Shown here piece by piece: positions 2,438-6,568 of a stretch of DNA of 59,952 bases. The translations under genes were made by a program, and so were the position numbers. The notes beneath the pieces are model-generated. The model did no database searches. It saw only the letters and a program-made list of their open reading frames with translations, and had not been told where the DNA came from. Position 1 is the first letter of the stretch. The number at the start of each line of letters is the position of its first letter. Source of the stretch: Candidatus Bathyarchaeota archaeon (GTDB taxonomy: Archaea; Thermoproteota; Bathyarchaeia; Bathyarchaeales; Bathycorpusculaceae); contig CAVYHV010000024.1 in NCBI GenBank assembly GCA_963768425.1, forward strand, positions 1-59,952, read 5' to 3'.

Positions 2438-2702
2438 CCGATGTCAAACTAGCCTAAACAGTTTTTGTCAGTTGCGTTCTTTCTCTTTAGCCATTGCTGC
2501 TCTTTTGTTCTCACTCGGGTTAATGGAATGTGTTGTTACAGACCTTGTAGAAAGTGAATTGGATTCGAGCCTTAGGTGGTTCGTGTCGTTTGAATTTGAA
2601 CCTAAAATCGATTGAGACGTGTCCATACCCTATGGAGCTTCAAATTTAATGTTGACGTTGTTGAGTGGGTTGGTGTAGTTTGTTTTCATGAGTTCGTAGG
2701 CA

Positions 2703-3113
2703 CTATTTTAGCGGTTTTCTTTTTACTTCTTTAATTTGGTCGAAGTCTTCATCATCGCTTACAATAATGGGCGCTTTTTTGTTTAGTGCTGAGGCAACGT
2801 GGATTGAATCGCGTGGGCTTAGGTTATATTTTTCCATAAGTGATTGAGCTTGAGCTATTATTCCTTCATCAACATTGATGAATTCTAGGTTAGGAAATCC
2901 GAGTAGTTTTTGTCCTAGAGCTATTCCGCTGGTTCTGCCCAGCGTTTTTGTTGCTACCCAGACAACTTCATCCCAAGTTAAGGTAGATGTGGCCGCGGAT
3001 AATTCTCCGGTTTCTATTTTTTGAAGTATTTCTTTTGCTTTCTTTGCTTTTGGCTCTAAGTTGGGATGATACAATGCTGAGTAAAGGAAGACGTTAGAGT
3101 CAACGTATTGCAT
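2703..3113 (-). CDS. vapC: VapC-type PIN-domain toxin (TA pair 1)
   Basis: YVDSNVF, TWDEV, DSIHVASA and VSDDEDFD supply the PIN acidic residues; overlaps the upstream antitoxin. Confidence 0.9.
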   Translation of the reverse strand: MQYVDSNVFLYSALYHPNLEPKAKKAKEILQKIETGELSAATSTLTWDEVVWVATKTLGRTSGIALGQKLLGFPNLEFINVDEGIIAQAQSLMEKYNLSPRDSIHVASALNKKAPIIVSDDEDFDQIKEVKRKPLK

Positions 3114-3363
3114 GTCTTTGGGCTACCTCTTCATTAATTATTTCTTTGAGGTTGACGACTCTTTTTAGTTTGGGGGCTTGGGTCATGGTGAAATACTCGG
3201 TATAGCTGCCTTCAATTTTTGGTTTACTGAGGACTATTTCGTCCCCTTTGAGTTCTAAAATCACTTCAACTCCAGGCTTAAGACCTAACGCATCTCTTAA
3301 TCGTTTGGGAATTACTACTTGACCTTTAGGTCCGATATTTTTTCGCGGCAGATTGAACACCAA
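3100..3363 (-). CDS. vapB: AbrB/MazE/SpoVT-family antitoxin (TA pair 1)
   Basis: IGPKGQVVIPKRLRDALGLKPG is the AbrB signature. Confidence 0.9.
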   Translation of the reverse strand: MVFNLPRKNIGPKGQVVIPKRLRDALGLKPGVEVILELKGDEIVLSKPKIEGSYTEYFTMTQAPKLKRVVNLKEIINEEVAQRHAIR

Positions 3364-3459
3364 TTAGTGATTTTGTTCCACTTTCATTTAAACTTTCCCA
3401 CTTATTGGTGCCACTCATTCTATTTGTATTTTTTGAAAGCATTGCTTAGCTCGGTAAGT

Positions 3460-3490
3460 TGGCGCCGGCGAAGGGATTCGAACCCGTGCG
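3460..3490 (-). repeat. tRNA 3'-end fragment (Ser-like, T arm plus acceptor plus CCA); putative att site
   Basis: Minus strand reads CGCACGGGTTCGAATCCCTTCGCCGGCGCCA; 3459-3484 is 25/26 identical to 4472-4497. Confidence 0.85.
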
Positions 3491-3687
3491 AGGGCGAAGA
3501 CGTCAACCAAACCGTTTCTTCGCAGCTAATTCCTTCTTTTTTGTCTCCTACGGCAGTTTGGCAAACCAAACTTACTTGCAAAACTAATTGCTCTCATTTT
3601 TATTCTAGACGTTATTGCAAGGTAAAACTATGTAATTCACGCTAGAGCAAAGTAAGCCGATTTCAAAACCTTGTCATATGCAGTTAG

Positions 3688-4134
3688 CTAGCCTAAATAA
3701 TCTGAATCGACTCCTTCCTCTCGTGAAACATCTACAAGTCTCCGGTCGCCTGAAAGAAGGCGATCCACATCTAGATTTTTCGCTGAAACTATTTGCAGGG
3801 CATCTGCTACATAGATATGGTACTTCTCAACAAACAACCAAGATTGCGTAAGCAGTTTTGACCTCAAAGGGGCAACCTTTGCAACTCCAAGTTTAATCAG
3901 CCTTGTAGTCTCAGCTATGAATGATTCCCGAGCAGTTGTATAATCCTCACTCTCTAGCCATTTCCTTCTGTAATAGGTCTGAAGTGCTCCCAGAACCTCG
4001 CCTATATTCCAGATAGAAAAATGTAAACTTGCAGTGCCGCTTAAGGCTTCCAAGTAAGTATCATTGATTTTCTCAGTCCCTTCCTCGAGCACATATCGCT
4101 TAACGATTGCACTTGAGTCCAGGTAAAGTTTCAA
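3688..4134 (-). CDS. vapC: VapC-type PIN-domain toxin (TA pair 2)
   Basis: YLDSSAIVKRY, NIGEV, DALQIVSA and LSGDRRL motifs. Confidence 0.9.
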   Translation of the reverse strand: MKLYLDSSAIVKRYVLEEGTEKINDTYLEALSGTASLHFSIWNIGEVLGALQTYYRRKWLESEDYTTARESFIAETTRLIKLGVAKVAPLRSKLLTQSWLFVEKYHIYVADALQIVSAKNLDVDRLLSGDRRLVDVSREEGVDSDYLG

Positions 4135-4400
4135 GTAGCTTCTGCCCTCATTTCGGTAATTATTTTTCCAGCGGAAGTGGCGATTTTTGGCTTAACTGGC
4201 TTTATCTGCAGATCTCTGATTTTTTTGCCATCCATTTGCGTCAGCGCTTCTGCCACGGTTTTTTCGCTGAGTTCCTCCTCAAGGGCTTCTTCGACGGCTT
4301 CGCTGATTCCTTTCAACCCCCTCTTTTTGGAAGCCAGAATTTTAAATTCTTCCCAGACATCGGCATCAATCATTATGCTTGTCTTTATTTTTCCCGTCAT
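4131..4400 (-). CDS. vapB: Ribbon-helix-helix antitoxin (TA pair 2)
   Basis: Likely start is ATG 4400 (MTGKIKTSIMIDADVWEEFK...ISEAVEEAL); 4-nt overlap with the toxin. The longer ORF-track start runs through the tRNA fragment. Confidence 0.8.
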   Translation of the reverse strand: MTGKIKTSIMIDADVWEEFKILASKKRGLKGISEAVEEALEEELSEKTVAEALTQMDGKKIRDLQIKPVKPKIATSAGKIITEMRAEAT

Positions 4401-4472
4401 ATATTTGACCCTAATTACTGAAAAGAGTAAATACTCCCTAATTAGCAATACTCTATTTTTACCGGAATCGAT

Positions 4473-4543
4473 TGGCGCCGGGGAAGGGATTCGAACCTGA
4501 GACCCCTTAGGGAAAGGATTTCCATCTGAGCATCGGGCAAACA
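4473..4543 (-). repeat. Chimeric tRNA 3'-half fragment (Leu-CAA intron end and variable arm joined to a Ser-like acceptor end with CCA)
   Basis: 4487-4543 aligns to the tRNA-Leu gene at 6401-6463; 4472-4497 matches 3459-3484. Confidence 0.85.
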
Positions 4544-4628
4544 CTAATTTTCGGTATTATTGTCAGTATCATCTGAGGTTGATGTGAATTCTGGAAGATT
4601 CCAATCTTGTATGAAAATCTTAATAATA

Positions 4629-5264: not shown

Positions 5265-5267
5265 GTT

Positions 5268-5286
5268 TGGTGTTGCGGGCAGGATT
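5268..5286 (-). repeat. tRNA-Leu 3'-end fragment with CCA; putative att site
   Basis: Minus strand AATCCTGCCCGCAACACCA versus the gene end AATCCTGCCCGCAGCA; begins 4 bp after the vapC stop. Confidence 0.8.
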
Positions 5287-5338
5287 AAAGGTGCCGTTCA
5301 AACTGTCTTTACACAATTGACGGAAAAGAATCAATCTT

Positions 5339-5626
5339 TTACTTGTAAACGTTATCATGGTGCTCGTACCTTCGTATGGTGACCACTTTCGTTGCTTCGT
5401 CAATATCGTAGACTAGAACAAATGAGCCCACATGGACTCGGCGCATGTGCTGCATAGGGCTCTTTAATGGCTTGAACTGCTGAGGGTTTTCCAAAATTTC
5501 GCTAACCTTTCTAGTCAGTGCTTCAAATTGTATTGAATCCTTCTTTTTCAGCTTCTTGAAAATTCTGTCTACTTTCTCAACGACTTCTAAGGAATACAAG
5601 CGATTACTTGGAATATCTTTTTGCAA
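5339..5626 (-). CDS. relE: RelE/ParE/StbE-family toxin (TA pair 4)
   Basis: KKLKKKD...ILENP..FKPL...RRVHVGSFVLVY...HHDNVY pattern. Confidence 0.88.
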   Translation of the reverse strand: MQKDIPSNRLYSLEVVEKVDRIFKKLKKKDSIQFEALTRKVSEILENPQQFKPLKSPMQHMRRVHVGSFVLVYDIDEATKVVTIRRYEHHDNVYK

Positions 5627-5834
5627 AGTCGCTGACTTTTATAGTTTTTTCGGATTCAGAAGCTTTCAGGCTCTCGGTAAATTCTGGTCTTAGCTCAGGC
5701 TCCAAAATGCACTCTTCAAATTGCCGTGCCATCAGGTTTATCGCTTGACTCTTGTCCTTGAGACCGTGCTTGGCTTTAATGATATTCAGTACCCTATTTG
5801 TCCGATCATCAATCTCAACTATGGCCTTGACCAT
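5604..5834 (-). CDS. Antitoxin, DUF2683-like (TA pair 4)
   Basis: MVKAIVEIDDRTNRVLNIIKAKHGLKDKSQAIN...EPELRPEF; overlaps relE. Confidence 0.82.
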   Translation of the reverse strand: MVKAIVEIDDRTNRVLNIIKAKHGLKDKSQAINLMARQFEECILEPELRPEFTESLKASESEKTIKVSDFAKRYSK

Positions 5835-5965
5835 ATTAACACCATATTAATGTTGTATTAATCTGGAATATATAAAAATTGAGGCATGTACCAGGAAATT
5901 TTGCAGTAATTATGTGACCTTGATAGCGAAAACAGCTTGAAACAAACGCATTTTTCGATTTTATA

Positions 5966-5990
5966 GGTGCCACGGGCTAGCTCGAAGCCG
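5966..5990 (-). repeat. Degenerate tRNA-Leu 3'-end fragment
   Basis: Plus strand ggtgccacgggctagctcgaagccg resembles gtgctgcgggcaggattcgaacctg, with several mismatches. Confidence 0.45.
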
Positions 5991-6389
5991 TCGTTTAAAC
6001 CGTTGGTTGGGCTTGCACTTTTGGCGAAGCGCTACATCCCCGTTTTTAACCATCTTTACTAGTAAACTGGGACTCGAATCCCTTTCCCACCGTAATCTCT
6101 TTGATATTGAGTTAATTTTGGCTTCTCGAGACATCCAATTGCAGCTTTGCTTCTAGAAAATTATTAAATTCGCAATTGATACAATCCAAACTTAACCTTT
6201 ACTTTCGAAGCGTCATAAACTTAATTCAAAAGCAATATGGAAAATGATGCCAGCAGACCCCCCTCCGTCTCTCTGTGTCTATCCCGGTTTATGGATCTGT
6301 ATGGTAACCTGACAAACGCGAATATGCCGTAGCTTTCCATCGTAAGAAATCAAGAAATTAGTGAAAAACGAGCAGGAAATATGCAAAAG

Positions 6390-6509
6390 TGCTGCGGGCA
6401 GGATTCGAACCTGCGAACCCCTGAGGGAAAGGATTTCCCATCCGGGCGCATTCAGGCCAAATGTTTGATCTTGAGTCCTTCACCTTTGACCTGGCTTGGT
6501 TACCGCAGC
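6390..6509 (-). tRNA. trnL: tRNA-Leu(CAA) with a 35-nt intron (6435-6469) at position 37/38
   Basis: Acceptor GCTGCGG/CCGCAGC plus A73; anticodon stem AAGGA/TCCTT with CT-CAA-G; long variable arm; T arm GCAGG-TTCGAAT-CCTGC; BHB helix CTCA/TGGG with two 3-nt bulges. CCA is not encoded. Confidence 0.96.
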
Positions 6510-6568
6510 CCGATGCACCCAAAATGTCTGAGTTCTAACTTATTAATCATTTCCATCATAGGCAAAAC

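Follow-up and report, generated by a model that had tools for sequence, protein, structure and literature searches.

We show that a tRNA-Leu(CAA) gene of an uncultured soil archaeon (Candidatus Bathyarchaeota) is followed by a row of toxin-antitoxin (TA) operons that are set apart from one another by pieces of tRNA 3' ends. The gene lies on a stretch of 59,952 nucleotides (nt) (contig CAVYHV010000024.1 of GenBank assembly GCA_963768425.1, positions 1 to 59,952 of the forward strand), hereafter called the window. Four intact type II TA operons are predicted downstream of the tRNA (Pfam): a RelBE-like pair, an inverted VapBC pair and two further VapBC pairs. All tRNA pieces in the window lie on the minus strand, in the orientation of the tRNA. 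Other tRNA genes of this genome and of its relatives show the same architecture, its content varies between species, and one border in the window is a hybrid of the ends of two different tRNAs. On balance, we favour the view that these are TA units bounded by attachment (att) sites and devoid of an integrase of their own, which tyrosine integrases from other places have added one after another at tRNA 3' ends and which addiction has preserved.

The array behind tRNA-Leu(CAA)

The original prediction, made from the letters alone, had described a tRNA-Leu gene, co-oriented tRNA 3'-end fragments and four TA pairs, one of them inverted. This picture is borne out by Rfam, by Pfam and by alignments of the pieces. 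The features are given here from the tRNA outward.

6390..6509 (-): tRNA-Leu(CAA), intron-containing, anchor of the array (Rfam RF00005, 44.2 bits against a gathering score of 29)
5991..6389 (-): interval between the tRNA and the first piece, 399 nt, without a TA pair; a 57-amino-acid (aa) open reading frame (ORF) alone, with no family match (Pfam/NCBIfam scan)
5966..5990 (-): weak candidate for a decayed 3' end of tRNA-Leu; acceptor end the same as in distal fragments of relatives
5604..5834 (-): DUF2683 antitoxin of the RelBE-like pair (Pfam PF10884, E 6.4e-8)
5339..5626 (-): RelE/ParE-family toxin (Pfam PF05016, E 5.7e-9, full length)
5270..5286 (-): direct repeat of the tRNA-Leu(CAA) 3' end, followed by CCA (16/17 to the last 17 nt of the tRNA)
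4854..5264 (+): VapC (PIN) toxin of the inverted pair (Pfam PIN, E 3.7e-15)
4664..4864 (+): VapB-type antitoxin of the inverted pair (position and conservation; no family match)
4473..4543 (-): hybrid att scar, with the intron end and exon 2 of Leu(CAA) as far as the T-loop, followed by the final 25 nt of tRNA-Ser(CGA) with its CCA (split alignment)
4131..4400 (-): candidate antitoxin of the third pair (overlap with the PIN start and conservation in relative G016; no family match)
3688..4134 (-): VapC (PIN) toxin of the third pair (Pfam PIN, E 3.6e-7)
3460..3499 (-): tRNA-Ser(CGA) 3'-end fragment, variable arm to CCA (3460-3492: 33 nt, 94% to the tRNA-Ser(CGA) of G016, E 2.8e-7)
3100..3363 (-): AbrB/MazE-type antitoxin of the fourth pair (Pfam PF04014, E 7.7e-11; TIGR01439)
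2703..3113 (-): VapC (PIN) toxin of the fourth pair (Pfam PIN, E 3.4e-19)
2561..2572 (-): T-loop-like 12-mer, maybe the last scar, weak (11/12 to the T-loop region; local score 19 against a null 99th percentile of 17 from shorter windows)

The tRNA at 6390-6509 is the sole one that Rfam finds in the 60-kb window. From its sequence we read it as tRNA-Leu(CAA), as the original prediction did: the CAA anticodon, an intron of about 34-35 nt at the canonical position 37/38, a long variable arm and discriminator A can all be recognized, and the 3' flank is CTTTT, without an encoded CCA. Default ARAGORN reports no tRNA in the window because the gene carries an intron; with introns allowed, the program labels it Ser(cga). 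We rejected this label, since the true tRNA-Ser(CGA) of relatives has quite a different sequence, whereas discriminator A and a D arm and variable arm like those of tRNA-Leu(GAG) and tRNA-Leu(TAG) of the same genome argue for leucine. The block formed by this tRNA and the genes for oligoendopeptidase F and a methyltransferase is conserved among relatives, and homology with the seven relatives listed ends at 6385-6389, exactly at the tRNA 3' end.

The toxin domains of the four pairs, three PIN and one ParE_toxin, match their Pfam profiles with near-full coverage, each toxin gene overlaps a small gene upstream of it, and the acidic residues D8, E43, D104 and D122 of the inverted-pair VapC are invariant across eight homologues. 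Two of the four antitoxins belong to described families. The other two (4131-4400 and 4664-4864) have no match in Pfam or NCBIfam, and we call them antitoxins because of their position and their conservation in relatives. The three PIN proteins are only 19-21% identical to each other and hence are not duplicates, in agreement with the original prediction. In alignments with relatives, a putative palindromic promoter/operator region is conserved upstream of vapB and relB inside each cassette; upstream of the vapB at 4664-4864 it would lie at about 4610-4650. From the tRNA outward the intervals between pieces measure 399, 679, 726, 973 and 757 nt, and those of 679-973 nt are each filled by one TA operon.

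The piece at 5270-5286 abuts the stop codon of the inverted vapC. The 17-mer of the tRNA 3' end of which it is a copy has two matches in the window, against 0.01 expected by chance. Two other pieces are tRNA 3' ends, as predicted, but not of tRNA-Leu alone. The fragment that had been placed at 3460-3490 comes from tRNA-Ser(CGA): a Leu origin was rejected because the match is to the tRNA-Ser(CGA) 3' end of G016, and 3460-3499 (40 nt) aligns at 90% with one place in many relatives. The fragment at 4473-4543 changes its affinity in the middle. Left of the T-loop it agrees with Leu(CAA) at 31/40 positions and with Ser at 20/40, whereas to the right, past the shared GGTTCGAATCC, it agrees with Ser(CGA) at 14/14 and with Leu at 5/11. 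The stretch common to both tRNAs at this place is 11 nt long. The Leu/Ser hybrid fits a T-loop crossover between two att types.

Both the hybrid and the Ser piece are bridged, with 0-2 differences, by contigs that were assembled from public runs of other studies. Their junctions are therefore real and not assembly artefacts, and a chimera as source of the hybrid was rejected for this reason and because the shared stretch is just 11 nt. Split-tRNA genes and duplicated tRNA pseudogenes were considered and rejected as well, since the pieces are 3' parts only, are co-oriented and repeat the adjacent tRNA at unit borders. Of tRNA-Ser(CGA), the genome itself contains four 3' pieces only: two on contig C24, one at C13:24925-24943 and one at C17:19208-19227.

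Recurrence in this genome and in its relatives

Pieces were sought throughout the genome by BLAST with its own tRNAs and the Ser(CGA) of a relative, with reversed sequences as decoys. This search replaced a T-arm regular expression that was too unspecific (7 window matches against 3.6 in shuffles). Outside tRNA genes it found 21 pieces at E<=0.05, against 2 with the reversed decoys, and 47 of the 72 BLAST pieces at E<=1 are 3'-terminal parts. Toxin genes are concentrated around these places: 14 of the 20 (16 PIN loci and 4 ParE/RelE) lie within 1 kb of a tRNA gene or piece, compared with 4.4% of random positions, and 11 of the 20 within 500 nt, compared with 2.7%, the tRNA-near genes being grouped in 8 loci and thus not independent.

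In support of the original prediction, discrete integrase-less units bounded by tRNA-derived repeats are found at other tRNAs, both here and in relatives. A second array stands behind tRNA-Ala(CGC) on contig C10. Its first TA pair is separated by a 19-nt repeat from 3.8 kb that hold membrane-protein genes and another TA pair; next come a 25-nt repeat, an inverted pair and, at the end, a 41-nt repeat. The three repeats are 100% identical to the tRNA end. Single TA units stand behind tRNA-Ser(TGA), tRNA-Ser(GGA) and tRNA-Thr(GGT). At the end of contig C13 a RelBE pair adjoins a 45-nt Leu(CAA) piece. C13 was considered as a neighbour of the window start; it ends in an IS110-like gene, and no link between the two was found. 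On contig C17 (10090-32431), five co-oriented pieces of one type, about 48 nt long and resembling tRNA 3' ends, bound units of 1-13 kb with varied cargo, and the cognate tRNA gene is absent from the assembly.

The homology search covered 41 genomes, the window's own included, all but a few of them metagenome-assembled genomes (MAGs). As the relatives are different species, recent events cannot be timed. Each cassette of the window has homologues elsewhere whose similarity ends at the borders of the cassette, with pieces of the tRNA of that locus on the flanks. In G022 the inverted VapBC immediately follows tRNA-Leu(CAA) and has a distal repeat of 46 nt; it stands behind tRNA-Leu(GAG) in G005 (34-nt repeat, 100% identical) and G024, and between Leu(TAG/TAA)-like pieces in G002 and G020. 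The RelBE cassette (5338-5874) is 76-83% identical in three relatives, and in G016 a homologue follows a different tRNA with an intron, the repeat there being 98 nt long. An 86% identical copy of the third cassette (3514-4460) is found directly behind the real tRNA-Ser(CGA) of G016. The fourth (2703-3415) is 78% identical to two copies in G012, and its copy in G020 adjoins an Ala(CGC) piece; homology of its VapC with the relatives' copies stops near 2685. In general, cassette homology begins a few nt from the tRNA end and stops after the palindromic promoter/operator, shortly before the distal repeat. In the inverted pair the vapC stop codon abuts the tRNA end ...GCACCA.

The inverted VapC was then surveyed with one genome per species. 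There were 576 pattern matches, 483 of which encode a relative, and the best 80 loci were used. In 13 of these 80 best loci ARAGORN calls a tRNA-Leu on the opposite strand 6-21 nt after vapC, and the flanking repeats are 14-78 nt long and 89-100% identical. Of the 48 close loci from Bathyarchaeia, 18 show a T-loop motif no more than 35 nt from the vapC stop codon, compared with 2/797 random windows; among the distant loci the figure is 1/32. A scan of viral contigs found no relative of the inverted VapC. Three loci binned as bacteria, L071 (Limnocylindrales), L077 (Dormiibacterota) and L096 (Sulfotelmatobacter), carry an archaeal-type VapBC cassette, the first with a tRNA-Leu(GAG) resembling that of Bathyarchaeia and a 28-nt repeat. 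These contigs were probably misbinned, and transfer is less likely. In MAGs of Altiarchaeales, Euryarchaeota and Methanobacteriota (L090, L091 and L098), distant homologues of the inverted VapBC are flanked by direct repeats of 16-53 nt that are not of tRNA origin and share one sequence, which resembles the 3' end of a protein-coding gene. The cassette design may thus use other target genes in other archaeal phyla.

The array is not invariant among relatives. In G004 the tRNA-Leu(CAA) site is empty: the tRNA is followed by the native CTTTT flank and then by a hydrolase gene. At the same place G016 has 1,530 nt inserted, with a RelBE pair, a gene of the IS200-like type, a 41-nt Leu piece and a lone antitoxin, after which homology resumes at 88%. 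Behind tRNA-Leu(CAA) we find one unit in G022 and four in the window. In six loci an extra unit stands between the tRNA and a VapBC cassette that abuts the tRNA in sister loci. These six units are two ParE/RelE pairs, two PIN pairs, one lone antitoxin-like ORF and one membrane protein, i.e. a TA pair in 4/6 cases.

Some loci depart from this pattern. In G019 (locus L023, C49, 2875-6561), TA pairs alternate with three pieces of tRNA-Leu(CAA) at a distance from the intact tRNA, and two copies of the 3' part of hemD flank the whole; the hemD ORF ends in vapB-derived residues, in a stretch 96% identical to window 4789-4865. In G004 (locus L025, C33, 4054-6634), tRNA-Ser(CGA) is followed by a non-TA unit of 2.4 kb, with a 558-aa ORF, small zinc-ribbon-like ORFs and no integrase, and a 45-nt repeat of 100% identity.

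On its outer side the array of the window is followed by a variable zone and then by a conserved flank (1-1145) that has homologues elsewhere in relatives. Between array and flank lie a 73-aa response-regulator receiver fragment (1730-1951) and a 111-aa ORF with a TrmB-type helix-turn-helix (2102-2437), both likely remnants. A repeat of about 98 nt (1949-2046) has three copies on contig C28 and others on C14 and C10 of the same genome (full copies 91-94% identical), as well as in several relatives. In the window, on C10 and on G016:C5, it stands just past the end of a TA array.

How the units may have come to stand at tRNA genes

The window contains no integrase, as had been stated: the genome has seven matches to PF00589, none of them on the window contig. 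Two of the other contigs suggest where a recombinase might be encoded. On C14 (260234-291085), an integrase gene on the minus strand (260424-261734) comes after a gene like tRNA-Leu(TAA) that contains an insert, and the tRNA end is repeated at 285587-285610 and 291070-291085; the region comprises an element of about 25 kb with its own integrase, located at tRNA-Leu(TAA), and one more unit. On C28 (17400-19163), the gene for a 453-aa integrase (17802-19163) adjoins an att-like tRNA end, and the same att recurs 4-5 times, co-oriented, on C17. Two more candidate integrases are encoded on C30 at 106-111 kb. This genome thus combines integrases that have tRNA-type att sites with arrays in which the same att recurs without an integrase, as action in trans requires. 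We infer that the integrases of such integrated elements are candidate recombinases for the array. XerA, which had been named as a possible agent, is unlikely given that integrases with cognate tRNA-type att sites exist elsewhere in the genome.

We therefore propose a scheme of accretion. Each TA operon would be a self-contained unit of 0.7-1.0 kb with its own promoter and no recombinase, bounded by repeats of tRNA 3' ends that would be att-site scars. Units would enter when an incoming tRNA-like att recombines, in a site-specific reaction of the tyrosine-integrase type, with the 3' portion of a tRNA gene or with a scar left before. The newest unit would mostly settle beside the tRNA, and older ones would be shifted outward. 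With an integrase supplied by integrative elements elsewhere in the genome, the units would behave like cis-mobilizable elements (CIMEs) that are moved in cis or in trans. The two distal pairs may derive from an array of the tRNA-Ser(CGA) type, joined to the Leu array by a crossover in the shared T-loop GGTTCGAATCC that left the hybrid at 4473-4543. TA addiction, through post-segregational killing, might explain why TA pairs are what persists and accumulates.

Several observations weigh against this scheme. The CTTTT flank of the window tRNA is of the native type despite the array downstream, unlike occupied tRNAs elsewhere, where the CCA from the cassette continues the tRNA end; stacking of the newest unit next to the tRNA does not predict this. 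The first interval (399 nt) holds no TA pair. Nor does the degenerate fragment proposed at 5966-5990 stand on its own: its similarity to the window tRNA is not above chance (local score 10, reached by 81% of random windows), although its acceptor end equals the distal fragments in the relatives' loci L068 and L069 and 5966-6007 is conserved at 87-94% in three relatives. Neither an intact tRNA-Ser(CGA) nor a reciprocal Ser/Leu hybrid was found by BLAST in this 91%-complete assembly. Among the 18 loci with a tRNA motif next to the inverted vapC, the distal T-loop motif is gone in 11 and left in 7, as expected of old, decaying scars. A tree of 49 cassette DNAs groups by tRNA-Leu isoacceptor, with 4 label changes in 25 labelled rows where the minimum is 3; switches between att types are thus rare, and vertical inheritance of old insertions could explain much of the cassette distribution. 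Arrays on C17 and C30 hold units of 1-13 kb with non-TA cargo, which makes the TA-only units one end of a spectrum and not a separate system.

Signs of present activity were also sought. No excision, circle or empty-site junction of the window array was seen in contigs of four public runs, which are short and of low depth (the best run contains 0.21 of the sampled words), bear only on the parts that they cover and cannot show rare forms. The check for circular junctions that had been suggested with the prediction thus gave nothing. One joint in run X3 connects 6394-6438 to 4545-4680 with 23 other letters between (one contig, depth 2.9, weak). We read it as a relative with an unhybridised Leu 3' half as distal repeat.

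Several of these points would be just as natural if the TA pairs were the survivors of decay. Each interval would then be the remnant of a complete integrase-bearing element, be it a provirus, a plasmid or a cryptic element, of which deletion has left only the TA pair and the att scars, and the pairs would never have moved as minimal cassettes and would have no mobility now. The element of about 25 kb on C14 shows that integrase-bearing elements do sit at a tRNA gene of this genome, and the units of 1-13 kb with varied cargo on C17 and C30, together with the 2.4-kb unit of G004, form a continuum of sizes. The grouping of cassettes by tRNA type and the many degraded or lost distal scars point the same way. 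Precedents exist: work on Sulfolobus reports remnants of integration at tRNA genes and inserted regions that carry vapBC (PMC3718332), and CIMEs are considered products of decay (PMC5704250). Yet decay would need to stop at the same borders again and again, since copies at four tRNA types share homology from the tRNA end to just before the distal repeat. The units newly gained beside a tRNA are already minimal TA pairs in 4/6 cases, and no integrase remnant is found in the window or, by tblastn with five integrases of this genome, in 110 loci, a search less sensitive than one by profile; the relatives' intervals examined thus showed no integrase-bearing elements. Identity reaches 98-100% over 31-76 nt in several repeats, and this points to recent events in which no element genes came along. 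We consider decay alone less likely than accretion by integrases, but a serious competitor to it.

The T-loop is a classic crossover site of tRNA-targeting tyrosine integrases, and this matters for the idea that no dedicated recombinase is involved. Under that idea the tRNA repeats serve as portable homology, and homologous or illegitimate recombination by the host excises units as loops and places them at other tRNA 3' ends or scars of sufficient similarity. Repeat lengths do vary widely (14-98 nt), and some arrays or cassettes lie away from tRNAs, inside a duplicated hemD piece in G019 and 12 kb off in G014. The hybrid junction falls in a shared stretch, but 11 nt of T-loop are short for homologous recombination, and strict co-orientation and the position at tRNA 3' ends suit att sites of integrases, with which matching integrases in the genome also agree. 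We hold recombinase-free shuffling to be improbable. Least credible of all is a functional coupling by which the pieces are kept as partners of the TA pairs, as decoy substrates or RNA regulators of a tRNA-cleaving VapC or through convergent transcription into the tRNA gene: the vapC stop codon does abut the tRNA-Leu 3' end, convergently, in many species and some distal repeats are conserved beyond neutral expectation, but homologous cassettes are flanked by fragments of several different tRNAs, many fragments have decayed, and RelE-type and non-TA units share the same borders.

Accretion of integrase-less units by integrases encoded elsewhere is thus the reading we retain. A bolder version of it can be entertained tentatively. 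Bathyarchaeia, and perhaps other archaea, might possess a true cassette system for TA and defence modules. Its cassettes would be minimal TA operons with a promoter and a tRNA-type att site each, and tyrosine integrases from other places would capture them at tRNA genes, stack them, excise them and pass them on. Such a system would be a functional counterpart of integrons based on tRNA-derived sites, in which hybrid att sites let cassettes cross between arrays of different tRNAs.

Meaning and comparison with known systems

Type II TA modules are highly mobile, and how such two-gene units move has no general explanation. Here, throughout an archaeal lineage, most VapBC and RelBE operons stand behind tRNA genes as discrete units that are bounded by att sites and lack an integrase; one site is empty, others are variably filled, and one att is a hybrid. 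This architecture makes the question of TA mobility testable: which integrase, which att, and by way of a circle or not. If the system is active, uncultured archaea that abound in soils and sediments would have a platform for the capture of stress and defence cassettes, and the concept of CIMEs and accretion would extend from bacterial integrative and conjugative elements to archaea. If it is inactive, it still shows addiction modules that outlive their carrier elements and dominate tRNA-linked islands.

Integrons are arrays of small, single-function units between recombination sites, in which TA cassettes are common and are thought to stabilise the array. The original prediction called the array integron-like, which holds as an analogy only. 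It has no integrase or attI beside it, all PF00589 matches being on other contigs. Its borders are direct copies of tRNA-Leu and tRNA-Ser 3' ends and not attC hairpins. Its cassettes have their own predicted promoter/operator and one pair is inverted, unlike the promoterless, co-oriented cassettes of integrons, which are read from the promoter Pc. By any of these three defining features, the array is not an integron.

The prediction named no earlier description of this architecture, but related arrangements have been described in bacteria. CIMEs and their tandem accretion at tRNA or other target genes are described in Streptococcus and other bacteria (PMC5704250). Like the CIMEs of that account, the units of the array are flanked by attL/attR-type repeats of the target 3' end, lack integrase and transfer genes and stand in tandem at one site. 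CIMEs are there presumed to move only with the help of an integrase-bearing element, and the same is presumed for the units described here. The differences are that the latter are archaeal, far smaller (0.7-1 kb), consist almost only of TA operons and stand several to an array, some junctions joining att sites of different tRNAs. Tycheposon islands of Prochlorococcus are described as elements integrated at tRNA genes and stacked between partial tRNAs (10.1101/2020.12.28.424599). Integration at tRNA genes is common to both. Tycheposons, as presented there, have their own integrase and replication modules and carry cargo of up to 10 kb or more, whereas the units of the window have neither and carry a single TA operon.

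In archaea, tRNA genes are integration hotspots, and tandem arrays at one site are described as arising by re-use of one att site (PMC6563490). For Sulfolobus islandicus, non-functional integration remnants at tRNA genes are reported, with vapBC among the inserted genes (PMC3718332). The array has in common with these cases its place at a tRNA gene, its vapBC genes and the tandem order. In the cases presented in these two accounts we see no counterpart of units with one TA pair each, repeated, at many tRNAs; the vapBC of S. islandicus is described as flanked by degenerate copies of an insertion sequence and not by tRNA pieces. The pTN3-type integrase of Thermococcales is an archaeal tyrosine integrase that targets tRNA-Leu and recombines other similar sequences (PMC5495485), and so offers a precedent for hybrid tRNA junctions and rearrangements at tRNA genes. 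The reactions described for it are large inversions, and the low-specificity one needs at least 104 bp of identity; no such integrase family is tied to the array of the window.

In the literature searched, no title or abstract describes TA-only units bounded by tRNA fragments. The array thus differs from the systems described so far in that each unit is one TA operon with its own promoter, that several unrelated units are stacked, that this occurs at many tRNAs throughout a lineage, and that one family of cassettes is fused to the end of tRNA-Leu.

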